A stretch of DNA of 13,339 nt from a virus (IMGVR_UViG_2711768040_000006); one strand, 5' to 3'; positions 1 to 13,339 are shown, counted from the stretch's first letter. A program made the numbers and translations. The notes: a model not told the origin generated them from the letters alone.

Positions 1-258
1 ACACAAAATAAAGAACACAAATACAGAAAACAACAACACAATAAAAACAAGAGAACACAAGCTATAAATATTACACCAATAGAGAACACTAATCAAGAAC
101 ATATCAGCACATAATTTCCCATTATACGCGCGTATAATGGGAAATTATGTGCTGATATGTTCTTGATTAGTGTTCTCTATTGGTGTAATATTTATAGCTT
201 GTGTTCTCTTGTTTTTATTGTGTTGTTGTTTTCTGTATTTGTGTTCTTTATTTTGTGT
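1..258. repeat. Perfect palindrome (at least 258 bp, centre between 129 and 130); telRL-like protelomerase resolution site or hairpin-telomere fold-back
   Basis: Bases 1-129 are the exact reverse complement of 130-258, checked base by base. The window starts exactly at the mirror position, so the palindrome may extend further upstream. Confidence 0.85.
102..157. other. telO-like 56-bp core palindrome (TATCAGCAC...CCCATTATACGCGCGTATAATGGG...GTGCTGATA)
   Basis: Same length, same CGCGCG-centred core and same TATCAGCAC/GTGCTGATA outer arms as the N15 telO site as I recall it; inner arms differ slightly. Recollection only, not an alignment. Confidence 0.6.
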
Positions 259-487
259 GAATTATTATTGTTGTTTTACGATCTTTGATTGTGTTCTTTT
301 GTTGGTGAGGATTAGGAGAATAAATAGAGGAAACGTATCTCATTGATGATTTTCATCATGTTTCACTAGTTTTATACGATTTCCTTTCTTTTAAAAAATC
401 CTTTATTATCAATTTGTTATGATCTTGCCGTTGTTTTTTTTTGCATTTAAGGGATAAAACAAAAGATGATTTTGTTCAAATCTTCGT

Positions 488-586
488 CTTTGCCTTTTTT
501 GTTTTACTTTGCTTTTTCTATGTCAATTTGCTAGAAATATGCAAAGCAATAATTATTAAGCAAAGTTATAAGCTGGAGATGACAGT
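488..586 (+). promoter_or_regulatory. sopAB promoter/operator with four CTTTGC boxes (about 488-493 and 507-512 direct; 541-546 and 560-565 inverted) and a GGAG ribosome-binding site at about 574-577
   Basis: CTTTGC hexamers are the SopA autoregulatory motif in the F sopAB promoter. Here there are two direct and two inverted copies, each pair 19 bp apart, immediately upstream of the sopA ATG at 587. Exact -35/-10 not assigned. Confidence 0.5.
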
Positions 587-1756
587 ATGTCTTTGAAAAA
601 GTTATTACAAGATTGTGTTACGCGCGGTCAAGAAATGACCCAAGCAATTGCTATAGCTCAATTCGGTGATGATAGTCCTGAAGCTCGGCGTATCACGCGT
701 AGATGGGGGATAACTGAAGTAGCAGATTTAATTGGTGTAACTCCTCAAGCAATAAGAGATGCTGAGAAGAACGGGCGTTTACCTGCACCTGACTTTGAAA
801 TGAGAGGAAGAGTTGAACGTCGTGCCGGTTATACCATAGATCAAATCAATAGTATGCGAGCTGTTTTTGGCAACCCAAACCAACGGCCACAAGATAAAAA
901 CCCAGTTGTGCTTGCTGTTATGTCACACAAAGGCGGAGTTTATAAAACATCGTCTGCAGTACATCAGGCACAATGGCTAGCATTACAAGGTCATCGTGTT
1001 CTTTTAGTTGAAGGTAACGATCCTCAGGGAACAGCCTCCATGTATCACGGTTATGTACCTGATTTACATATACATGCCGAGGATACTTTACTGCCATTTT
1101 ACTTGGGCGAACGCGATAACGCTGAATATGCTATAAAACCAACATGCTGGCCTGGACTGGACATTATTCCTAGCTGCCTAGCTTTACACCGTATAGAAAC
1201 AGATCTCATGCAATATCATGCTCAGGGTAAATTGCCTCACCCTCCTCACCTGATGCTACGCGCAGCTATAGAATCAGTTTGGGATAACTACGATGTTATC
1301 GTTATAGATAGTGCTCCAAACCTCGGTACAGGAACCATTAACGTTGTTTGCGCAGCTGACGTTATCGTTGTTGCTACCCCTGCAGAATTATTTGATTACG
1401 CCTCTGTTCTACAGTTTTTCACAATGCTTCTCGATCTCCTAGAAAGCGTTGACCTAGGCGGATTTGAGCCGACCGTTCGCTTGCTTCTGACTAAATATAG
1501 TCTCACTACAGGAAATCAATCACGATGGATGGAAGAGCAAATAAGAAATACATGGGGATCAATGGTATTACGTCAGGTTGTACGCGTTACCGATGAAGTA
1601 GGTAAAGGTCAGATAAAAATGCGAACAGTATTTGAACAAGCGGCAAACCAGCGTTCAACACTTAATGCATGGAGAAATGCCGTCTCTATATGGGACCCTG
1701 TTTGTCGAGAAATTTTTGATGATCTAATAAAACCTCGCTGGGAGAACGAAGAATGA
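587..1756 (+). CDS. sopA: Partition ATPase SopA (ParA, type Ia, with N-terminal HTH extension)
   Basis: 389-aa ORF with deviant Walker A KGGVYKTS; extensive similarity to F-plasmid SopA as I recall it (AIAIAQF..DDSPEAR..ITRRW, VLLVEGNDPQGTASMYHG, KPTCWPGLDIIPSCLALHRIE). ATG at 587 with upstream GGAG. Confidence 0.93.
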   Translation: MSLKKLLQDCVTRGQEMTQAIAIAQFGDDSPEARRITRRWGITEVADLIGVTPQAIRDAEKNGRLPAPDFEMRGRVERRAGYTIDQINSMRAVFGNPNQRPQDKNPVVLAVMSHKGGVYKTSSAVHQAQWLALQGHRVLLVEGNDPQGTASMYHGYVPDLHIHAEDTLLPFYLGERDNAEYAIKPTCWPGLDIIPSCLALHRIETDLMQYHAQGKLPHPPHLMLRAAIESVWDNYDVIVIDSAPNLGTGTINVVCAADVIVVATPAELFDYASVLQFFTMLLDLLESVDLGGFEPTVRLLLTKYSLTTGNQSRWMEEQIRNTWGSMVLRQVVRVTDEVGKGQIKMRTVFEQAANQRSTLNAWRNAVSIWDPVCREIFDDLIKPRWENEE

Positions 1757-2742
1757 AACAACGCTCTCTTCTAAAAAATGCTCCGGATATTAATCGCATT
1801 ATGAGTAATAATCATCATGCACCTGAACATCAGCCGGTATCACCTATGGTTGGTGATTTAAAACGTCAACTGAGTTCATTAACCGGTAATAGCATAACTT
1901 TGCCAGTATGCGGACGTAATGTTAACTTTAAGTTAGAGACGATCCCCGCAGATAAAGTAGAAATGGCAACAATGGTATGGCTAGGTAATGAGCGTGATCA
2001 AGATTTATTAAATGAATCTTCTCTAGCTGATTTAATTCCATCTTTTCTAACTTCTGGGCAACAAAATCCGGCTTTCGCAAGAAAAGTGTCAGGTATTGTT
2101 GAAGTAGCTGATGGTTCTCGAAGACGTAAAGCAGCCATTATAACTGGATGCGATTATCGTGTTCTTATTGGCGATTTAGATGATGAACAAATGCAATGGT
2201 TATCGCAGATAGGCAACGACTATAGACCTATCAGCGCCTATGAAAGGGGGAAAAGATACCTGCGAAGGCTCCATGAATTTGACGGTAACGTAAAATCTTT
2301 AGCTGAAGCCGAAGGCGTGGATAGAAATATTATCAGCCGATGTATTAATACAGCCGGTTTACCTAAAGATATATTGGCAATATTTAACCATCCTGGTGAG
2401 TTATCAGCCAGAGCAGGAGACGCTCTTTTTAAAGCATATCAGGGACAGGAAGCAGCCATGAAAAATGCTGCATCTCAGTTGCTGAGGATGAAAAAATCAG
2501 GTGAAAGTTTAGATGCGCAAAGAATAATACAGGCTCTTCATGATTTCATTATTGTTGAGAAAAACAATTCACATGGAGAGAAAAGGGAAAAGAAATATGG
2601 AGACGGTGTTGTGGCGAAATATGGGAAAAATTTCACAACATTAAAATTAGATAACAGAAAAATACCATCGCACCTAATGAGTAAAATTGAATCTATTCTT
2701 GAGGAGGCGTTTGGAAATTCTTCCGATGTAAAAAATAACTAA
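1753..2742 (+). CDS. sopB: Partition centromere-binding protein SopB (ParB family)
   Basis: 329-aa ORF whose ATG overlaps the sopA stop (ATGA, translational coupling). SopB/ParB-like motifs: ITLPVCGR, WLGNERDQ, LIPSFLTSGQQNPAF, ADGSRRRKAA, HPGELSARAGDAL. Confidence 0.9.
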   Translation: MKQRSLLKNAPDINRIMSNNHHAPEHQPVSPMVGDLKRQLSSLTGNSITLPVCGRNVNFKLETIPADKVEMATMVWLGNERDQDLLNESSLADLIPSFLTSGQQNPAFARKVSGIVEVADGSRRRKAAIITGCDYRVLIGDLDDEQMQWLSQIGNDYRPISAYERGKRYLRRLHEFDGNVKSLAEAEGVDRNIISRCINTAGLPKDILAIFNHPGELSARAGDALFKAYQGQEAAMKNAASQLLRMKKSGESLDAQRIIQALHDFIIVEKNNSHGEKREKKYGDGVVAKYGKNFTTLKLDNRKIPSHLMSKIESILEEAFGNSSDVKNN

Positions 2743-2758
2743 TAGCAGAAAATAGAAT

Positions 2759-2796
2759 AGACCCCATCAGTTATAGATGGGGTCTTAATTTTATTC
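2759..2796. terminator. Bidirectional rho-independent terminator between the convergent sopB and small membrane-protein genes
   Basis: 10-bp stem AGACCCCATC / GATGGGGTCT with a 7-nt loop, T-rich on the + side (TAATTTTATTC) and A/T-rich on the other. Could alternatively be a protein-binding inverted repeat. Confidence 0.5.
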
Positions 2797-3093
2797 AAAA
2801 AATATAAATACAAGTAAACACGCCACCACCGGCACAGCAAAATCCATCAGGCTTGCTACATCCCACGCACGCGGATCAAAACCGCCCCACCACGGCATAT
2901 TCATTCGCTTGCCATGCCCGAACATTTCAATCCAGCGATATTCTGCCTGGGTATGTTCACGCGCAATGAAGAACGTACAACCGGCTATCGCCCCGTAAGC
3001 CCAGTTTCCGGTAAAAAGACCAACCAGTACCTGCGCAGCCACAGCACAAAGTGCATGAAGGAAAGGTGTTATATCCATTTTCATCCTACCCAA
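2791..3093 (-). CDS. Hypothetical small membrane protein (two predicted hydrophobic helices)
   Basis: 100-aa ORF with two long hydrophobic stretches (FLHALCAVAAQVLVGLFTGNWAYGAIAGCTFFIA and ASLMDFAVPVVACLLVFIFFE). The track start is TTG; an internal ATG (about 3075) preceded by AGGA is the more likely start. No family recognised. Confidence 0.45.
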   Translation of the reverse strand: MGRMKMDITPFLHALCAVAAQVLVGLFTGNWAYGAIAGCTFFIAREHTQAEYRWIEMFGHGKRMNMPWWGGFDPRAWDVASLMDFAVPVVACLLVFIFFE

Positions 3094-3120
3094 TAAAACG
3101 GGGCGCTCGGCCCCTTAATA
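3094..3120 (-). terminator. Putative rho-independent terminator downstream of the S74 fibre gene
   Basis: On the - strand, GGGGCCGAGCGCCCC hairpin followed by GTTTTATT, immediately after the stop at 3121. Confidence 0.4.
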
Positions 3121-4160
3121 TTATTTAGACGCAAGCGTCGCCTCAATTGCAGATAATCTTTGTTTTAATTCTGCATTTTCTTCTTCCAGTGCTGTTATTC
3201 TGTCGTCTGACTCTCTGGCTACCTGAACAAGCAAGCCAGTAACACCAGAATAATCTACTGTGTAATAACGTTCACCTTCTTCACCTTCCGATCCGCTTGC
3301 ACCGTCCTGATATTTCATTGCGGAACCTACAGCTTCTGGGATTGCTTCCAGAGCTTCCTGTGCAATGACACCAGCATAGGGCATACCGTTTTCTTTAAGC
3401 GTGTATGTATAGCCGTTCATTTTACGGATGCGGTCGGTTGCATTATCGATCACCTGAATGTTGTCTTTCAGATCCCGGTCGGAATGCTGGTTAAATGCGG
3501 TGGCATGACATGCACCATTAACGCTTAACATATAGGTGTTATCGGTATTTTTCTGCGCATAGAACATATAAGCGCCACCATCAACACCGACTTCATAAAC
3601 AACAGGACGGCTGGAGTGCCCCACAATTGAGCAGTAACACCAGCATAAGCGGTTCCCTGTGTGTTTAATGTCATGGTTGACCCATGATTGGCATATTTGA
3701 TCTGTAATGTGTCGGTGTAATCAAATTTAATAAGCGCGTTACTTCCACGCTTGCTGTATGACATAAGGCAGTTACCCATTTTGAGGTATCCGCTGTCACC
3801 GGGAAAAATCATCGTACCGCCATAAAGGTTGGTAAAGTCCCAGCAAATGTTTGTCCCGTTATCGTTCAGGTTAAGGCGCGCCATTGCGTTACCTGGACTG
3901 TCTATCCATTTTTTGAGGTATAGTTCGCAATACGCATCCTCAACACCTGCCGTCCTGTGAGTTGAGCGGAGTTTTCTCCCAAATATAGCTCCGCTAGTTG
4001 GCAATACCTGCTGATACCATGAAGCAGACCAGTCACCAACGATTTCATCTTTGCTGTCTACATATAATTTTGTTGCGTAGCTTCCTTGATCGTTTTTTAA
4101 TTTGCTAACGTCGGATTTTAGCGTTTTGATGTCATCAGGAATTACTGTCGATGTAGCCAT
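3121..4160 (-). pseudogene. Tail-fibre protein with C-terminal intramolecular chaperone (peptidase S74) domain, interrupted by a 1-nt frameshift
   Basis: Two overlapping - strand ORFs in different frames (3525..4160 and 3121..3624). The downstream one carries the S74 auto-chaperone signature HSDRDLKDNIQ..NGYTYTLKENGMPYAGVIAQEALEAIPEAV and a coiled C-terminus. Adding one G to the short G run near 3619-3622 would fuse them as ...TAQLWG-HSSRPVVYEV... (about 346 aa). Confidence 0.65.
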
Positions 4161-4169
4161 TTTTCTTCC

Positions 4170-4451
4170 TCACATCCAGCCACGAAGTTGATGCTCAACA
4201 GCAACCACGTATTCATCGAATAATGACGATATTTGCGAATCATTAATGATGCGCACGTTTACAAAATATCCGTCTTCCTTAACACATACCGGTTCGCCAT
4301 CTTCAGTCAGTTCTCCGGTTTCTTTGTACACGTTACCTATCACGTCAATAAGAATATCATCCTGCATCGACTCATCATCATAATAGCCGATACTCTCCAT
4401 AAAGGCCGAAAAGTCGGCCCTGTCGGCAAATTTGAGTGTTAAATCTTTCAT
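4170..4451 (-). CDS. Hypothetical small acidic protein (93 aa) between stf and the S74 fibre gene
   Basis: ORF with ATG at 4451. By my reconstruction its ATG overlaps the native (pre-IS2) stf stop as TAATG, suggesting translational coupling to stf. No family recognised; not lambda Tfa-like. Confidence 0.5.
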   Translation of the reverse strand: MKDLTLKFADRADFSAFMESIGYYDDESMQDDILIDVIGNVYKETGELTEDGEPVCVKEDGYFVNVRIINDSQISSLFDEYVVAVEHQLRGWM

Positions 4452-4532
4452 TAGATTGACTCCCCCACCTGAGCATCAGTCAATGCCTTGTGCCATATTC
4501 TGAAATTCCTGATATGACCAAATAAATGACGT

Positions 4533-4537
4533 GACCC
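4533..4537. repeat. Target-site duplication GACCC (IS2, right flank copy)
   Basis: 5-bp direct repeat immediately outside the IS2 terminus; a 5-bp duplication is characteristic of IS2. Confidence 0.6.
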
Positions 4538-4548
4538 TGGATTTGCCC

Positions 4549-5454
4549 CTATATTTCCAGACACCTGTTATCACTTAACCCATTACTGGCCTGCTGCCGC
4601 AGATATTCCCGTGGCGAGCGATAACCCAGTGCACTATGCGGATGCCATTCGTTATAATGCTCGAACGCCTCTGCAAGGTTCTTTGCTGCCGTTAACCCGT
4701 CTGGTTTAGGCATGATACTGATGTAGTCACGCTTTATCGTTTTCACGAAGCTCTCTGCTATGCCGTTACTCTCCGGACTCCGCACCGCCGTGTTCTTCGG
4801 TTCAAGCCCCAACATCCGGGCAAACTGCCGTGTTTCATTAGCCCGGTAGCATGAACCATTATCCGTCAGCCACTCTACTGGAGACGCCGGAAGCTCGTTG
4901 CCGAAGCGGCGTTCCACCGCTCCCAGCATGACGTCCTGTACTGTTTCACTGTCGAAGCCGCCCGTAGTGACTGCCCAGTGCAGTGCCTCACGGTCACAGC
5001 AGTCCAGCGCGAACGTGACTCGCAGTTTTTCTCCGTTATCACAGCGGAACTCGAACCCGTCAGAGCACCATCGTTGATTGCTTTCTTTCACGGCCACTTT
5101 GCCAGTATGTGCCCGTTTCGATGGCGGTACAGCGGTTTTTCGCTCAAGCAACAGCGCATTCTGGCGCATGATCCGGTAAACACGTTTGGCATTGATCGCA
5201 GGCATACCATCAAGTTCGGCCTGTCTGCGAAGCAGCGCCCATACCCGACGATAACCATACGTGGGCAGCTCTCCGATAACATGGTGTATACGGAGAAGCA
5301 CATCCGTATCATCTGAGTGACGGCTGCGGCGACCATCTTTCCAGTCATCGGTTCGTCTGAGAATTACGTGCAACTGCGCACGCGACACCCGGAGACAACG
5401 GCTGACTAAGCTTACTCCCCATCCCCGGGCAATAAGGGCGCGTGCGCTATCCAC
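4549..5454 (-). CDS. insD: IS2 transposase OrfB (InsD, DDE integrase-like catalytic domain)
   Basis: 301-aa ORF matching IS2 InsD as I recall it ([28 protein letters not shown]...). Naturally expressed as an OrfAB fusion by -1 frameshifting. Confidence 0.9.
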
Positions 5455-5777
5455 TTTTTTGCACGCCCGTATTCAACGGCTTCTTTAAGGAGTTCATTTT
5501 CCATCGTTTTTTTGCCGAGCAGGCGCTGGAGTTCTTTAATCTGCTTCATGGCAGCAGCAAGTTCAGAGGCAGGAACGACCTGCTCTCCTGCGGCCACAGC
5601 AGTAAGACTTCCCTCCTGGTATTGCTTGCGCCAGAGAAATAACTGGCTGGCTGCCACACCGTGTTGCCGGGCAACAAGGGAGACCGTCATTCCCGGTTCA
5701 AAACTCTGCTGAACAATAGCGATCTTTTCCTGTGTAGTACGCCGTCTGCGTTTCTCCGGTCCTAAGACATCAATCAT
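5412..5777 (-). CDS. insC: IS2 OrfA (InsC, HTH DNA-binding protein)
   Basis: The track ORF 5412..5822 begins at an upstream alternative start. The canonical InsC begins at the internal ATG giving [24 protein letters not shown]... (121 aa). Confidence 0.85.
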
Positions 5778-5852
5778 CTGCTCTCCAATGACTAGTCTAA
5801 AAACTAGTATTAAGACTATCACTTATTTAAGTGATATTGGTTGTCTGGAGAT

Positions 5853-8165
5853 TCAGGGGGCCAGTCTAGACCCTGCTGTAGTCTGGCCTCCAATACGGAT
5901 GGTTGCAGAGTTCTGAATATAGGACCACGTAGTCTTTTTTTCGCTGGATATGCGCCCGTTACTTACTGAGCACGTAGACTGATCTGATTTTACACGCATC
6001 CCCATAACCATTTTTTCAAGCGATGCGTTTTCGTTTACCCGTCTGTTAGCTCCTCCAATATCGCAATAAGGAAATCCGTCTGGCCCATCTGCCGCGGATC
6101 CGAACCCAAGAATAATAGCCGCTCCGGTTTGATGACCGCCGGTATCAAAAACACGCGGCGCTGCATTTGGCGTTTTATACCAGTTCTTATGTACCTCACA
6201 AAGAACCGTAAAAGGAAGATTATAAAGATTATTCTTAATGGGAACTGTAACTATATCGCTTGCGCGGGTCGCCGCCGTCGTTCCTGATATAATAAAAGAT
6301 GATACACAAGGCCCATTTTCTACTTGTGGGGTGGCCAGATAAATATAGTCACCAGATACGGTTGCCCCGCCCTGCTTAGGAGAATACTGTATCTGAGAAC
6401 CTATTTTTAACTCCCCATCAATTGCCTGAATTGTTGCCTCTGCAAAAATCCATCCGGTAGCTTCGTCCTTTCTGACTCTCGCTGTAATCCTTGAGGCAGC
6501 ACCGCCTGTCATATTAATTTCAAGCGTTTGTGTATCAATATACGCATCACCAAGAAAAGTTGTTGCGCTACCGTCATATTTATCAAACCGGATACGCAAC
6601 CTTACCTGCAGTTCTGTTTTAAAACGACATGAGGTTGTCACGTATTTATTATAGCCTGAGACATCAACTGACTTTGTTGCAGCAATTGATGCCATATTAA
6701 TGGCTGAGGTTTGCCCAATCAGAGAATCGTTACAGACGAACTTTCCATAGGTAAAACCAAAACTATCCTTCCCGGTTTCGGGAACATCCATATTTGACGA
6801 TCGCCCCCAACTGGCAGGGTTTTCCGAATTGAGCATGTAGTTTGTTCTTTGCCCCTCAATAAGCAGGCCATCACGTTCAAATCGTGGCTCGTCAATGGCA
6901 GCCTCTGTCAGCACACCAGATTTGTTAATATAGGTTGCTTTCGATGCACGTTTAAACTTAACAATCTTGTCGCCAGGCATCGTTATTTCATCGTCACCAA
7001 TAACAATTTTTTTATATGACGGCGAAAAGCCCGTAATCATATCCAGCGAATCGTTAAATGGTATCCACACATCAGGCAGCGGCTGTAAGACATATTTATA
7101 CGGCTCCGCAGCCTGGCTTGCGTACTCTCTGGCTGCATCTTCGCTTGCTTTAGCTGCCGTCTGGCTTGCTGCCGATGCTTTCGCTGAGTTCGCAGCCGCT
7201 GTTTCGCTCACCTTTGCGTTGGTTTCACTGGTTTTTGCTGCTTTTTGACTGTTAGCTGATGCAGTGGCAGAAGCAGCCGCCGCGCTTGCAGAACTGGCTG
7301 CGGCACTCTCGCTTTGAGCCGCTGCATCCTGACTGCTTTTCGCCGCAGTTTCACTGGCTTTGGCATTCGTTTCGCTGGTCTTCGCTGCCGTCTGGCTGGA
7401 CTTTGCGTTAGTTTCACTCGTCTTCGCAGCTTTCTGGCTGTTAGCCGCAGCAGTTGCTGATCCAGCTGCTGAAGTCGCAGAACCGGCTGCCGCGCTCTCG
7501 CTTTGGGCTGCTGCAACCTGGCTGTTTTTTGCCGCAGTTTCACTGGCTTTAGCATTCGTTTCGCTGGTTTTCGCTGCCGTCTGGCTGGACTTTGCGTTGG
7601 TTTCGCTCGTCTTTGCGGCTGTCTCACTGTTTTTCGCGTTGGTTTCTGATTTTTTGGCTGCTGTCGCGGAGTTTGCCGATGCAGTCTGTGAGGCCGCTGC
7701 TGCCTGTGCGCTGTTAGCTGCATTCGTTTCTGAGGTTTTCGCCGCGTTCTTCGATGATGCCGCTGCGGTTTCGGATTTCTTTGCCGCCGCTGCGCTCTGA
7801 GAGGCGGCTTCGGCGTTGCGTGCCGCTTCTTCCACCATTTCCTCAAAACGACGCAATGCCTCCGGCATGACATCATCTTCCGTCATGGCACCGAGAAAAT
7901 CATTCAGCGTACCTGGTCTGGAACCTTCATAGACGGTAATGGTTCCGGCATGTGAAGGCGGAAAACCTTCAACAAGCAGGATAACGCTGTACTGGCCATA
8001 CTCAACATCCATGCTGTAACGCCCGGCTTCATCCGGATTTTCAGAGGCCACCGTGTTCACCAGTACCGTGGTGCTGTTACGCTTTGCCTTCAGTTGAATA
8101 GTGCAGTTCTGTATTGGTTTTCCCGCACCATCTTTCAGCACACCTGAGATTTTTACTGCTGCCAT
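5853..8165 (-). CDS. stf: Side tail fibre protein Stf (lambda Stf-like N-terminal domain, long Ala/Ser/Thr/Lys repeat shaft, distinct C-terminal domain); 3' end replaced by IS2 sequence
   Basis: N-terminus MAVKISGVLKDG.GKP.QNCTIQLKA.RNSTTV.VNTV.SENPDEAGRYSMDVEYGQYSVIL matches lambda Stf as I recall it. ATG at 8165 with GGAG 5 nt upstream (track ORF starts at GTG 8171). The reading frame runs into IS2 and stops at 5853 inside the element (...TTAGSRLAP*), so the native last ~26 codons are lost. Confidence 0.85.
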   Translation of the reverse strand: MAAVKISGVLKDGAGKPIQNCTIQLKAKRNSTTVLVNTVASENPDEAGRYSMDVEYGQYSVILLVEGFPPSHAGTITVYEGSRPGTLNDFLGAMTEDDVMPEALRRFEEMVEEAARNAEAASQSAAAAKKSETAAASSKNAAKTSETNAANSAQAAAASQTASANSATAAKKSETNAKNSETAAKTSETNAKSSQTAAKTSETNAKASETAAKNSQVAAAQSESAAAGSATSAAGSATAAANSQKAAKTSETNAKSSQTAAKTSETNAKASETAAKSSQDAAAQSESAAASSASAAAASATASANSQKAAKTSETNAKVSETAAANSAKASAASQTAAKASEDAAREYASQAAEPYKYVLQPLPDVWIPFNDSLDMITGFSPSYKKIVIGDDEITMPGDKIVKFKRASKATYINKSGVLTEAAIDEPRFERDGLLIEGQRTNYMLNSENPASWGRSSNMDVPETGKDSFGFTYGKFVCNDSLIGQTSAINMASIAATKSVDVSGYNKYVTTSCRFKTELQVRLRIRFDKYDGSATTFLGDAYIDTQTLEINMTGGAASRITARVRKDEATGWIFAEATIQAIDGELKIGSQIQYSPKQGGATVSGDYIYLATPQVENGPCVSSFIISGTTAATRASDIVTVPIKNNLYNLPFTVLCEVHKNWYKTPNAAPRVFDTGGHQTGAAIILGFGSAADGPDGFPYCDIGGANRRVNENASLEKMVMGMRVKSDQSTCSVSNGRISSEKKTTWSYIQNSATIRIGGQTTAGSRLAP
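5869..5873. repeat. Target-site duplication GACCC (IS2, left flank copy)
   Basis: Second copy of the 5-bp direct repeat flanking IS2; coordinates +/-1. Confidence 0.6.
7140..7800 (-). repeat. Intragenic tandem repeats in the stf shaft region (about 180-bp units; protein repeats of the AAKTSETNAKxSxTAAK type)
   Basis: Near-identical DNA segments recur (e.g. about 7330-7470 vs 7510-7650). The translation shows two ~60-aa near-duplicate blocks plus many shorter SETNAK iterations. Confidence 0.7.
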
Positions 8166-8176
8166 ATCCACTCCAC

Positions 8177-8203
8177 AAAAAAGCCCGCCTGAACCGGCGG
8201 GCT
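8177..8203 (-). terminator. Rho-independent terminator downstream of lom
   Basis: On the - strand, AGCCCGCC-GGTTCA-GGCGGGCT hairpin followed by TTTTTT, between the lom stop (8230) and the stf start. Confidence 0.55.
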
Positions 8204-8229
8204 GTCATAACACTGTGTTACCTGGCTAA

Positions 8230-8829
8230 TCAGAATTTATAACCGACACCCACGATGAAACCGTCAGTGCGCCAGTCACCACTGCCGGAGCCTTCATAAG
8301 CAATATCAATGGCCACGGATTCGGTCGGGTTAAACTGCACGCCAGCTCCCCACGCCAGAGACGTGTTGCTGTGGCGATCATCATCACTTCCGGTCAGCAC
8401 ATCGTGCGTTTTCCCCTTGTTGTCAGTTACGCGGAGATAATCCCCGGAGAACGTCGACACCCGGCTGTAAGCCACACCTGCCATCGCATAAGCACTGAAC
8501 CATTCATTCACGCGTACAGATGGCCCCGCCATCATGCTGAACCAGCGGTTACGCACGGAATCTTCATGCCAGCGGGTATCGCTGTAATGCGTTTTTTGCT
8601 CATCTTTGGCATTGGCATAACTGAATGACGTCACCAGCCCCAGCGTGTCCGTAAATTCATAACGGTATTTCACGTTAATGCCCTTCAGGTCATCACTGCC
8701 TGGCATATCAGTATGGGTCTGAAGATACCCGGCGCTTAGTGTGGACTGATGCTCTGCTGCGCTCGCTGGCGTACCAGCGGCAACCAGCCAGACTACTGCG
8801 GACAGAATAACAGCACATAATTTACGCAT
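8230..8829 (-). CDS. lom: Lom outer-membrane protein (Ail/Lom/PagC beta-barrel family)
   Basis: 199-aa ORF with signal peptide (MRKLCAVILSAVVWLVAAGTPASA) and a C-terminal ...GVGYKF aromatic beta-barrel terminus. Position between J and stf is as in lambda. Confidence 0.9.
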   Translation of the reverse strand: MRKLCAVILSAVVWLVAAGTPASAAEHQSTLSAGYLQTHTDMPGSDDLKGINVKYRYEFTDTLGLVTSFSYANAKDEQKTHYSDTRWHEDSVRNRWFSMMAGPSVRVNEWFSAYAMAGVAYSRVSTFSGDYLRVTDNKGKTHDVLTGSDDDRHSNTSLAWGAGVQFNPTESVAIDIAYEGSGSGDWRTDGFIVGVGYKF

Positions 8830-8850
8830 AATTACCTCTCGCTTTTCTGC

Positions 8851-8877
8851 AATAAAAAAGGCGTCATTTCTGACGCC
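8851..8877 (-). terminator. Rho-independent terminator downstream of J
   Basis: On the - strand, GGCGTCA-GAAA-TGACGCC hairpin followed by TTTTTTATT, between the J stop (8897) and the lom start (8829). Confidence 0.55.
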
Positions 8878-8896
8878 CGTATTGGGGTTATAAAAT

Positions 8897-11800
8897 TCAG
8901 CTGATACTGATGCCTGCGGTGGCTTTCTTCATCACCACAACCAGCAAATCGCTGATACTTGCTGTGGGATACCAGTCATTTACCAGCCATGCTGACACCG
9001 AAAACTCCAGCGTCATGTGACCGTGACCGGCAGGCATATCAATAACGCCACTGTAAATCAGCGTATTATCCAGCGCGGTACGGTTATAAATTTCAGCACC
9101 GTTTTTCCGCACTATCAGACGGCATGAGGAGTAAATATCAGTATGCTCTCTCTCATGTTTAGCGCCGCTGAATGCCACCGCCGGAATAACAATCTGCCGG
9201 TCAAACGGCTGATCGTCATAAACCCTGACGGTAATGGTCCCTGATGGCCACCGTTCCGGTGCACGGGAGTCACGGGGGAAAGCTTTGCCCACTGTTTTAA
9301 CGAGATCGCCTTCAATCTGGTTCGCGGACAGTTTTCCCAGAACCCGGCAGTTCTCGTTAATCGTGACGTTGTTGAGCGTCCCGGAGTTCGCATTCACGTT
9401 ACCGCTGATATCGGCATTTTTTGCCGTCAGCCGCCCGTCCGGTGTCAGGGAAAATGCCGGAGGATTACCGCCGCTGGTAATGGTGGGAGCCGTCAGATAT
9501 TTCAGGAACACTTCATTCATAAATATCTGATCGCCCTGACCAACAAACATCGGCTTTGTGTTGCCATTCGCAGGATTAATCATCGCAATCCTGTCCGCCG
9601 CCAGCAGCACCTGACTCTGCATGCCGTCAGGGGTATTCTCAATACCGGCACCAATACCCGCGATATAAAGGCGTCCGTCCTGCATCTGCTGCAGCTTCAC
9701 AGCCCACATGCTGTTCAGGTTATTATTTGTATCAACCTGAACCTTCTGTATCTGCTGAATTGCCGCACTCTGGTCTTCCAGTTTCTTATTGACGGTCTGC
9801 GTGATTTCATTGCTGACATCCGTAATGGACGTCCTGATTTCAGCCAGGTCAGGCGCAAGCTGACCGTTATCAATCTGCGTCCACAGCTCCTGAGCCAGAT
9901 GGCTTTGCCCTATCTCTCCTTTGAAAAAATCCAGATAGCCGGATGCATCATCACTCGGCTGGCCAACAGCCTCCACAAATGCCGATTTGCCAACGGTGTT
10001 CACACTGCGGATATAAAAGTAATAATCATGGCCCGGTTTGATATTGATACTGGCGGCTATCCAGTACAGCGCCGTGCCAAGATAGCGTGCTGTGGTTTCA
10101 ACCTGCCTGATATCCGCAATCCGCTTTTCCGAGAACCAGAACTCAAACTGTACCGTCGGATCATAAACCGCAAGATACGGCGTGGCAGTTATCTGAAAAT
10201 AGCCCGGCGTCAGCTCAATCCGCGACGGCGCTGCCGGTGCGGCAATCCGGAACGATACCGACGCCGGATCGCCCTGCTGCCCCCACGCATTTACTGCCCG
10301 GACTGTCAGCCTGTAGTTCCCCAGCGCCAGTTGCCTGAAGCGGTATGTGGTTTCCGTCGTCCTGGCCGTGCTGACCAGCCGCTCACTGCCGTCGTCCGCT
10401 GCCACGGTCAGACGGAGCAGGAAGCTCACGCCCTTCACCACCTTCGGCGTGTCCCAGCGCGCCAGCACCTGGTATTCCCCGCTGTCTGCGGTGACTTCGG
10501 CGGTCAGGTGCTGCACCGCTGGCGGCGTGACACCATTCACCGTGCCGCTCTGGTCGCCGTCAAAGTGCGCCCCGTTATCCACGATGGCTTCTTTCTCCGG
10601 CACATGCTGCACGGCAGTGATGGCATACGTGCCGTCATCGTTCTCACGGATACTCACACAGCGGAACAGGCGCTGGCGCAGCGTCGGCAGCTTCAGCCCC
10701 CATACGCTGTATTCGGCAACACCGTCAGGAACACGGCTCACTTTTACCTTCACGCCGTCGGTGACGGACTGAACCTCCACGCTGACCGGATTGCCACTTC
10801 CGTCAACCAGGCTTATCAGCGTGGTACCGGAGGATGGCAGCGTGATTTCACGGTCGAGCGTCAGCGTCCGGGTCTGGCTGTTCACCGCCAGCACGCGACC
10901 ACCGATGCTGATACCGGCATAGTCATCATCACAGATTTCAATGACATCGCCCGGTACATGGCGAAGCCCTTCGGCACCCACGCTGAAGTCCACGGTCTGC
11001 GTTTCCAGCAGTTCCGTTTTAATCAGCCACAGCCCGGCGCGGTGCGCCTGCCCCCGGCTGGTACAGCCAAAGGCATCCATCTTCGTAACATTACGACCGT
11101 AACGGGCAATGGCCTGCGTATCTTCAACAAGCTCTGTCGCCGTCTCCCAGCCGTTGTTCGGGTCAATCCAGTTCACCTCAACGGCATTATGGCGGTCCTT
11201 CAGGGCGCTGAAGCTGTAGCGGAACGGCGCGCCATCATCCGGCATCACCACATTACTGCGGTTATAGGTCCACACCTTATCTGATGGTCGGTCCTGCACG
11301 AACGTCAGCGTCTGCCCGTTCCATACCGGCATACAGCGCATCGCCGAGCAGAAATCACTGAGCACATCCCACGCCTTGCGCTGTGTGGTCAGGTACGCAT
11401 TACAGGTGATGCGCGGCTCCATGCCGCCAAAGCCGTCCGGCACTGACTGGTCGCAGTACTGGCCGATGACATACAGCGCCCATTTATCCACATCCGCCGC
11501 ACCAAGACGTTTCCCCATGCCGTAGCGCGGATGGGTCAGCATATCCCACAGACACCAGGCCATGTTGTTGCTGTATGCCGGTTTAAACGTTCCGTCCCAG
11601 ATACCGCTGTATTGCCGCGTCTGCGGGTTATAATTCGACGGCACCTGCAGAATACGCCCGCGCAGATGATAATTACGGCTCACCTGCTGGCTGCCGAACT
11701 GCTCCGAGTCCACCTGCACGCCGACCAGTGCCGTGTTCGGGTAGCACTGTTTCACATCGATGATTTCGGTGTATGACGACCAGAGCGTTTTGTTCTGCAG

Positions 11801-12376
11801 CTGGTCTGTGGTGCTGTCCGGCGTCATCCTGCGCATCCGGATATTAAACGGGCGCGGCGGCAGGTTATCCACCACCACCGAGGCCAGATACTGCGAGGTG
11901 GTTTTGCCTTTAATGGTGATATCTTTTTCCGTCACCCAGCCACCGTTACGCTGTATCTGAACCAGCAGGCGGACTTCCGACGGATTCCGGTCCCCCTTTG
12001 AGGTGGTTTCCACCAGTGCCTGCACACCGAAGGTAAAGCGCAGACGGTCGATGTTTGCAGACGTGATGGTCCGGGTAATCGGCGTGTCGTATTTCACTTC
12101 CGTACCCAGCACCGTCTCGGAACCGGAGGATTCAAATCCCTCCGGCGGTGTCTGCTCCTGCTCACCTGCCCGGAACACCACCGTGACACCGGAGATGTTG
12201 GTATTCCCCTCACTGTCCAGCACCGGTGTACTGTTCAGCAGCACGCTTTTTAATCCATCCACCGGACCTTCTATCGGCCCTTCGCTGATGGCATCGATCA
12301 CACTCAGTAACTGCGTGGATTTCAGGTTGTCCTTCGCTTCGCGCGGGGTATGCCCCTTACTGCTGCCTTTACCCAT
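8897..12376 (-). CDS. J: Tail tip / host-specificity protein J (central tail fibre)
   Basis: 1159-aa ORF. N-terminal about 800 aa are near-identical to lambda J as I recall it ([45 protein letters not shown]...), with fibronectin-like middle repeats. The C-terminal ~350 aa diverge from lambda. Confidence 0.93.
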
Positions 12377-12436
12377 TCGTCATGCTCCATAAACGACAAA
12401 ACCGCCCGCAGGCGGTTTCACATAAAACATTTTGCA

Positions 12437-13108
12437 TCAGCGACCAATCACCACAACCTGACCACCATCCCCTTCGTCTGCCGTGCTGATCTCCTGAGAG
12501 ATCACCCGCGACCCCACGCGCATTTCACCGTACAGAACGGGCAGAACATTGCCCTGGGCAACCATGTTATCCAGTGAGGAGAAATAGGTGTTCTGTTTGC
12601 CGTTATCTGTACTTGCTGCCGTGGGCGTCCTGGCTTTCGGTGCCAGCATCTGCGCCACACCGCCGAGCACCATACTGGCACCGAGAGAAAACAGAATGCC
12701 GGTCATACCACCGGCCCCAATGGCTGTCCCCCATGCTGCAAGGGTGGCTCCGGCGGTAAAGAATGATCCGGCAATGGCGGCTGCCCCCAGGACAATCTGG
12801 AATACGCCACCTGACTTGGCCCCGGCGACTCTGGGAACGATATGAATCACAGCGCCGTCAGGCAGAGCCTCATGTAACTGCGCCGTTAATCCGGACGTGC
12901 TGACATCCTGCCCGGCAATCCGTACCTGATACCAGCCGTCGCTCAGTTTCTGACGAAACGCCGGGAGCTGTGTGGCCAGCGCCCGAATGGCTTCAGCCCC
13001 CGTTTTCACACGAAGGTCGATGCGGCGGCCAAATCGTTGTAAATCCCCGTAAAGGCAGATGCGCGCCATGCCCGGTGACGCCAGAGGGAGTGTGTGCGTC
13101 GCTGCCAT
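12437..13108 (-). CDS. I: Tail assembly protein I
   Basis: 223-aa ORF matching lambda gpI as I recall it (MAATHTLPLASPGMARICLYGDLQRFGRRIDLRV...); overlaps the 3' end of K. Confidence 0.9.
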   Translation of the reverse strand: MAATHTLPLASPGMARICLYGDLQRFGRRIDLRVKTGAEAIRALATQLPAFRQKLSDGWYQVRIAGQDVSTSGLTAQLHEALPDGAVIHIVPRVAGAKSGGVFQIVLGAAAIAGSFFTAGATLAAWGTAIGAGGMTGILFSLGASMVLGGVAQMLAPKARTPTAASTDNGKQNTYFSSLDNMVAQGNVLPVLYGEMRVGSRVISQEISTADEGDGGQVVVIGR

Positions 13109-13339
13109 TTGTCGGTATACCTCTCTCGTTTGCTCAGTTGTTCAGGAATATGGTGCAGCAGCTCGCCATCACCACAGTAAATGGCGGCATGATTCGGCAC
13201 CGATGAACCAAAACAGCACAGCAGCACATCGCCCGGTTGTGCTGATGACAACGGCACCTGATACAGCCCTGTGGCCTCCAGATTATCCAGATAGAGATTC
13301 TGACCGTGACGCCACCAGTCATCCTCGCGATGAAAATCC
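13006..13339 (-). CDS. K: Tail assembly protein K (NlpC/P60-type), 5' partial: gene continues beyond the window end
   Basis: The frame is open from the window edge to the stop at 13006; the track lists only the part from an internal GTG. Translation contains ...PGDVLLCCFGSSVPNHAAIYCGDGELLHH..., and the position upstream of I is as in lambda. Confidence 0.8.
   Translation of the reverse strand, partial: DFHREDDWWRHGQNLYLDNLEATGLYQVPLSSAQPGDVLLCCFGSSVPNHAAIYCGDGELLHHIPEQLSKRERYTDKWQRRTHSLWRHRAWRASAFTGIYNDLAAASTFV

Follow-up and report, generated by a model that had tools for sequence, protein, structure and literature searches.

The DNA analysed here, referred to as the window, is the viral stretch IMGVR_UViG_2711768040_000006 at its full length of 13,339 bp, which corresponds to the entire contig CXXD01000035.1 of assembly GCA_001269005.1. 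The contig very probably represents the hairpin end (left arm) of an N15-type linear plasmid prophage that carries a lambda virion module, read back through the hairpin. The telomere palindrome, sopA, sopB, the fibre genes, lom, J, I and K were all located on the window, in the order given by an earlier, sequence-only reading of the same DNA. Its assignment of the stretch to the left arm of a hybrid linear plasmid prophage of the N15 family was borne out by relatives which share the tel-sop arm and carry TelN, RepA and CB together with lambda genes Nu1 to J.

The telomere palindrome

The window begins with a perfect palindrome that is centred on a protelomerase target. The features of this end are as follows.

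1–258, no strand: perfect 258-bp palindrome, a telLL-type fold-back of the left telomere, with its axis at 129|130 and one arm cut by the contig end
102–157, no strand: equivalent of the N15 protelomerase target telRL (56 bp in N15), by identity to N15
157–586, plus strand: AT-rich telomere-proximal leader and sop upstream region, ~29% GC

The two arms (1–129 and 130–258) were complementary at 129/129 positions with zero spacer, and the palindrome folded as DNA gave −145 kcal/mol (z = −37.6 relative to shuffles). The 22-bp telO core at 119–140, CCATTATACGCGCGTATAATGG, matched N15 telO exactly, and the same 22 bp are annotated as the tel sites of the phage record PhiR46_1. The similarity extended to 90% identity with N15 telRL over 97–157; the N15 annotation puts the cut site at 24802/3, the centre of telRL. 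The physical end of the molecule is predicted to lie at 129|130.

The intact telRL of the relatives pAH01-1, p19KM1803_4 and L022 is symmetrical over only about ±27 nt and is then followed by protelomerase. The match between the window and these relatives started only at position 103, and window 1–102 had no likeness to their genuine telR flank but mirrored the telL flank. The left arm is therefore the telL flank folded back and, as the whole window is a single contig, it stops where the contig stops. A documented signature is that of long reads which continue around a covalently closed hairpin into the opposite strand (PMC13293297). In the present case, the reads or the assembler would have rounded the hairpin and returned along the opposite strand, which leaves a perfect palindrome that is cut off where the contig ends. 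The telR end would be expected to give its own mirror signature, ...TTCTGAAAATCAGCACATAATTTCCCATTATACGCG folded back.

TGTTC motifs were found at +29, +42, +73, +113 and +163 from the axis. The TGTTC/GAACA pentamers are irregularly spaced in window 157–300, are mirrored in 1–102, and also occur around the N15 and pAH01-1 tel sites; they are possibly tos-like accessory protelomerase sites or regulatory sites (sop promoter/operator). Two other IMG/VR viral contigs, L009 (IMGVR_UViG_2671180431_000016) and L011 (IMGVR_UViG_3300036778_000064), end ~29–35 nt beyond the same tel axis and are further contigs terminating at this hairpin.

The sopAB operon and the module boundary

The partition operon lies next to the telomere and starts 457 nt from the palindrome axis.

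587–1756, plus strand: sopA, type Ia ParA partition ATPase of N15 type (NCBIfam equivalog and identity)
1753–2742, plus strand: sopB, ParB centromere-binding protein of N15 type (NCBIfam equivalog and identity)
2759–2785, no strand: bidirectional intrinsic terminator, 10-bp GC-rich stem (6 GC pairs) with T-runs on both strands

Both proteins passed their NCBIfam equivalog models (SopA, NF010259, 734 bits against a cut-off of 725; SopB, NF010252, 405 bits against 274). The description of these genes as F-type had to be abandoned: SopA was 93% identical to N15 gp28 versus 75% to F SopA, SopB was 74% identical to N15 gp27 versus 50% to F SopB, and there was no adjacent sopC. A tandem repeat search (TRF) found no sopC-like array after 2742, and the 43-bp repeats that define F sopC were not seen there. 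The inverted repeat (IR) centromere motif GTGCGACC-NN-GGTCGCAC, which occurs four times in N15 and five to six times in relatives, had no copy in the window. The sequences of IR1–IR3 listed in PMC7205306, where four IR sites are stated, match this motif. The layout is thus that of N15, with sopAB beside telL, no adjacent array in the window and IR sites elsewhere in relatives. A sigma-70 scan located no sop promoter, and the sites scored were fewer than in shuffles.

The strong terminator sits where the convergent sop operon and fibre module meet. DNA similarity to N15, which covers only tel and sop, ends at 2691, and similarity to lambdoid phages begins at 2818; the module boundary was therefore placed at the terminator after sopB. 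At the corresponding place, N15 and pAH01-1 have hairpins that differ from this one.

Relatives differ in the cargo that they carry between sopB and lom. At this variable site, L023/L024 (GCA_949281495.1; L023 ~9793–11692) have a reverse transcriptase and a SLATT_5 protein, which are defence-like, pAH01-1 (6701–7591) has a macro-domain protein, and the E. albertii plasmids NZ_CP117561.1 and NZ_CP126913.1 have a gene annotated as EspS.

The lambda-type tail-tip module

At the other end of the window, the genes are those of a lambda tail tip.

13006–13339, minus strand: K, NlpC/P60 tail tip protein, partial (C-terminal 110 aa, 5′ end lost at the contig end), 97% to lambda K
12437–13108, minus strand: I, tail tip assembly protein, 96% to lambda I, Pfam Lambda_tail_I
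8897–12376, minus strand: J, central tail fibre/host-specificity protein, 1159 aa, 84% to lambda J, GpJ domains
8230–8829, minus strand: lom, Ail/Lom outer-membrane beta-barrel protein, 45% to lambda Lom, Ail_Lom

The genes follow the lambda order K-I-J, succeeded by lom and by stf, which has a phage_tail_N match. The tail proteins had been proposed to be closer to lambda than to N15, and the values given above, set against ~30% identity for each of K, I and J to N15 gp19–21, agree with this. Residues 1–800 of J were 96–100% identical to lambda J, while the C-terminal ~360 aa (nt 8897–9976, residues ~800–1159) were divergent, with 21–76% identity per 100-aa block and a 28-residue indel. This divergence suggests a receptor specificity other than lambda's LamB. 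By these comparisons, the element is predicted to have a lambda-type virion in which the receptor-binding end of J differs from that of lambda.

The GC content was 29–44% across 1–4500 and 50–61% from ~7000. An open reading frame (ORF) of 461 aa was observed antisense inside J (window 9899–11284, plus strand); the high local GC content (59–61%) most likely accounts for it.

Relatives and the remainder of the element

Among the closest counterparts is PhiR46_1 (PV340565.1), whose linear record of 46,290 bp carries an annotated tel site at each end. Window 119–2800 was 100% identical to the ParA end of this record, and window 6910–13339 was 96% identical to PhiR46_1. From the left, its order is tel, TelN (77% to N15), further genes, RepA (76%), cI/CB and lysis, which continues as lambda Nu1 to J, Lom, Stf, the 93-aa protein, the 346-aa protein, the 95-aa protein, ParB, ParA and tel. 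Protelomerase and RepA are thus placed, by this linear prophage record, at the opposite end of a ~46-kb molecule. The expectation that the protelomerase and replication genes would lie across the palindrome did not survive, as the left arm is a telL fold-back and the PhiR46_1 protelomerase is ~46 kb away at the other end; protelomerase adjoins sopA only in circularised or virion-permuted maps. A protelomerase with TelK Pfam domains lies beside an identical telL flank and an identical SopA in L022, and protelomerase is also present in p19KM1803_4 and PhiR46_1. From relatives that are 97–100% identical, we infer that telN, repA and cB would lie on other contigs of GCA_001269005.1.

In N15, the cos-ended DNA circularises after infection. 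The imperfect palindrome telRL is then bound by TelN, which cleaves it in a staggered fashion around the axis and joins each strand to its complement, so that the hairpins telL and telR arise; bidirectional replication through the hairpins, driven by RepA, a large multi-domain protein of about 1,330 aa, next produces perfect telLL and telRR palindromes, which are resolved by TelN. The present element would follow the same course. Circularisation through cos after infection would be followed by cleaving-joining at telRL by TelN to give the hairpin telL and telR, and bidirectional replication driven by RepA would give telLL and telRR, each to be resolved by TelN. Partition of the low-copy plasmid would be achieved by SopB bound to the dispersed GTGCGACC-NN-GGTCGCAC centromeres and by the SopA ATPase.

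At least 24 plasmid records from E. coli and E. albertii carry this arm. The 24 comprised 11 odd-sized fold-backs (11–14 kb fragments or 50–91 kb), eight circularised records (45–49 kb) and five that end 26–172 nt before the axis. Fold-back or mirror "complete plasmid" records, many of them labelled circular, were observed under CP088430.1, NZ_CP019258.1, NZ_CP014491.1, NZ_LT906558.1, NZ_CP104505.1, NZ_CP126957.1, CP088810.1, CP088738.1, CP088562.1, CP088558.1 and NZ_CP101203.1. In CP088430.1 (91.5 kb) the mirror dimer is complete, with telLL at ~22,683 and telRR at ~68,113; this second symmetry point lies ~45.4 kb from the first and has telomere-resolvase fragments on its flanks. The assembly collection lists this exact SopA protein in 2,565 blocks, and nine of the ten longest contigs encoding it showed mirrored sopA|sopA 914 nt apart, which is 2 × 457 and the geometry of the window. 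Two separate records of strain EC21Z-151 show this end: one is linear, of unit length, and terminates 47 nt from the axis, and the other is a 14.5-kb fold-back.

The implied novelty of the hybrid could not be upheld. The lineage is deposited as phage PhiR46_1 and in dozens of plasmid records, and the mosaic is described in a preprint (10.1101/2025.09.12.675607) on N15-like phage-plasmids of Escherichia/Shigella with a lambda-like structural cassette, in which repA, sopAB and telN are telomere-phage-like. Telomere phages in general are widespread (PMC12042878). Literature searches found no dedicated paper on PhiR46_1; the PhiR panel is mentioned only as lambda-like test phages.

Alternative origins of the contig

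Several observations weigh against a contig read back through a hairpin. Hairpin read-through and a genuine telLL junction give identical sequence; the contig spans a 1.3-kb insertion sequence, IS2, which is unusual for short-read assembly; and protelomerase, repA and cB are not on the contig. It is unlikely, although it deserves the most weight among the alternatives, that the palindrome comes from a head-to-head dimer and is its true, double-stranded telLL junction; such a dimer could be the normal intermediate of replication, or a circular inverted one that is stable in a strain without a working protelomerase. A perfect telLL palindrome is the exact product of N15 replication before resolution by TelN, as established in N15 biology, whereas the arm in the window has only 129 nt and breaks off with the contig. 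Public databases contain several "complete" records that are mirror dimers, among them CP088430.1 with telLL and telRR, but the sizes of the mirror records are inconsistent (50–91 kb), which indicates that most are partial fold-backs and not exact dimers. One mirror arm is often rich in frameshifts, as in YDC107, and the arms of CP088430.1 are only 97% alike, which is typical of unpolished read-through. The presence in EC21Z-151 of both a unit-length linear record and a separate fold-back of the same end also argues against a dimer. In favour of a dimer, the IS2 insertion and a frameshift on the window show an element already in decay. The narrower form of this explanation, in which a decaying element without protelomerase function is stably kept as a circular head-to-head inverted dimer with a genuine telLL junction, is more improbable still; if it were true, many mirror-dimer "plasmid" records would partly reflect real molecules.

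It is very improbable that the contig comes from an integrated lambdoid prophage with captured sop genes. The tail module is nearly identical to those of integrated lambdoid prophages and phages, and one match falls in what is labelled a chromosome record, that of YDC107 (NZ_CP025707.1). This match is a mirror fold-back at 1–32,000, at the very start of the record, with one arm pseudogenised and ridden with frameshifts; it is a mis-join and was rejected as evidence of chromosomal integration. The sequence-only reading had itself allowed for chromosomal integration, marked by integrase and att sites; neither was found on the contig, which ends in the N15 telO fold-back, and the YDC107 match was the sole one to a chromosome. 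Moreover, the relatives with the tel-sop arm are, without exception, either extrachromosomal records of 45–49 kb that carry protelomerase and RepA or fold-backs of such records.

A chimeric contig wrongly fusing an F-like plasmid fragment with a lambda prophage is scarcely credible: the GC content jumps along the window and the contig contains the repeat element IS2, but the junction of sopB, terminator and fibre genes recurs in many independent records and contigs, PhiR46_1 included, and IS2 is bordered by a clean 5-bp target duplication, its exact empty site being present in CP088430.1.

The side-fibre genes and the IS2 insertion

Between the sop operon and lom, the left arm of the N15-type prophage carries a lambdoid fibre module. 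The IS2 inside stf and a 1-nt deletion that splits the S74 fibre gene were both absent from the sequence-only reading.

2791–3078, minus strand: 95-aa predicted membrane protein, last gene of the lambdoid fibre module (PHROG match, phrog_1443)
3121–4160, minus strand: tail-fibre gene, 346 aa, C-terminal Peptidase_S74 intramolecular chaperone domain, phrog_4563, split in two ORFs
4170–4451, minus strand: acidic protein, 93 aa, pI 4.05 (PHROG match, phrog_1361)
4451–4537, minus strand: orphan 3′ remnant of stf at the IS2 junction, last 25 codons and stop, with the left GACCC copy
4538–5868, minus strand: IS2 (IS3 family), 1331 bp, imperfect terminal inverted repeats (inverted-repeat pair, transposase domains)
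5853–8165, minus strand: stf, side tail fibre cut short by IS2, 767 native and 3 IS-encoded residues (…GSR-LAP*)

The fibre module had been considered of a different type from that of N15, with a novel distal domain in Stf. The 93-aa acidic protein and the S74 fibre were confirmed, whereas the distal domain of Stf is not novel, as it matches phrog_1419 (positions 1–768 of 793) and has ~96% DNA identity in phage 2G7b and others. Stf is composed of a lambda-like N-terminal domain, Ala/Ser/Thr-rich 7-aa repeats, a GTA-spike-fibre-like domain and a weakly ConA/LamG-like C-terminus. The only Pfam match in the distal half was a sub-threshold one to Laminin_G_3, which hints, weakly, at a lectin-like C-terminus. 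In stf 7132–7750, nested repeats of 21, 42 and 189 nt encode an Ala/Ser/Thr-rich heptad-like shaft (…SETNAK-SSQTAAKT…); the repeat copy number probably varies between alleles, which have 792, 798 and 799 aa in relatives.

The insertion has the full set of IS2 features: a length of 1331 bp, terminal inverted repeats, orfA/orfB with rve, and a 5-bp target duplication, GACCC, at 4533–4537 and 5869–5873. The OrfAB transposase (4549–5777) is produced by a programmed frameshift and carries HTH_Tnp_1 and rve domains. IS2 accounts for ~10% of the window. Removal of IS2 and one GACCC copy restored a 792-aa Stf with 98% identity to the intact 792-aa YDC107 protein, and the insertion has swapped the last 25 residues for three IS-encoded ones. 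The element was 100% identical to a copy in p13TMH22-2 that lies at another position in another fibre allele; the fibre region therefore takes IS2 insertions repeatedly. The IS2/stf junction of the window is unique, and a search for its exact sequence had no hit in the genome and viral contig collections; the contig itself was located by way of its truncated Stf protein.

In the S74 fibre gene, one T is missing at 3616/3617 relative to p19KM1803_4 (intact GGAGTTGCC, here GGAGTGCC). The resulting ORFs, 3121–3624 and 3525–4160, matched phrog_4563 positions 181–346 and 1–182, and the frame-restored protein was 93% identical to the intact YDC107 homologue. Either a genuine mutation or an error in the consensus may account for the deletion. 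Laboratory lambda (lambda PaPa) carries an stf frameshift, and by analogy the phage would probably stay plaque-competent through J alone, despite the disruption of both side-fibre genes. Rfam and tRNA scans of the window found nothing.

Comparison with known systems

PhiR46_1, pAH01-1 (NZ_CP055252.1), p19KM1803_4 (NZ_CP151021.1), p13TMH22-2 (NZ_CP019258.1) and pF16EC0211-3 (CP088430.1) belong to the same lineage and share the tel-to-K order, telO and sopAB. CP088430.1 was 96–98% identical to the window everywhere but at IS2. The window copy differs from the PhiR46_1 group in the IS2 in stf and the 1-nt deletion in the S74 fibre gene, and by having one arm only on the contig. Its stf is the 792-aa allele of YDC107 and CP088430.1, unlike the 799-aa allele of PhiR46_1.

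The element resembles N15 (NC_001901; Ravinvirus N15) in its identical telO, in the convergent sop/tail arrangement next to the telomere and in the dispersed centromeres, and the TelN, RepA and CB repressor of its relatives are 77%, 75–76% and 78% identical to those of N15. It differs in that DNA similarity is confined to tel and sop, and in that N15 genes 22–26 (cor, tail fibre, umuD-like) are replaced by lom, stf, the 93-aa gene, the S74 fibre gene and the 95-aa gene. Gene by gene, pAH01-1 has Nu1 to J at 85–100% to lambda (FI 80%), and TelN, RepA, CB, Cro, Q and methylase at 67–87% to N15. The N15 head genes are 53–90% identical to this lineage, though for FI the match covers just a quarter of the length; where the lineage departs sharply from N15 is at M, L, K, I, J and the fibres.

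The stf/S74-fibre module is common to the lambdoid phages 21, mEp460 and 2G7b at 91–96% DNA identity, and ev243 is also among the close lambdoids. Unlike lambda, there is no int/att here, upkeep depends on tel, sop and repA, and the J C-terminus diverges from the LamB-binding region. With the F plasmid, the element shares SopA and SopB homologues that pass the NCBIfam SopA/SopB models; it differs in the terminator and phage genes downstream of sopB and in proteins that are closer to those of N15. The phages phiKO2 and PY54 and the Klebsiella telomere phages (NAR688 and others) have the tel-sop arm in common at 64–77% DNA identity and the same lifestyle (PMC12042878), but different structural modules. 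No telocin or other cargo was seen on the window arm.

Implications for the lineage and its records

The element is a copy of a widespread and already known telomere phage lineage of E. coli/Shigella, one that has been deposited and whose lambda/N15 mosaic has been noted before. Its biological weight is small, and its practical value lies in curation. A perfect palindrome with telO at a contig end shows where a linear replicon physically ends in a hairpin, and nothing is expected beyond it. Of the 24 public plasmid records with this end, 11 are assembled as fold-backs or mirrors, and one fold-back is mis-joined to a chromosome; the sizes, gene counts and "circular" labels are therefore unreliable for this group, and its members are typed as "non-mobilizable plasmids" although they are phages.

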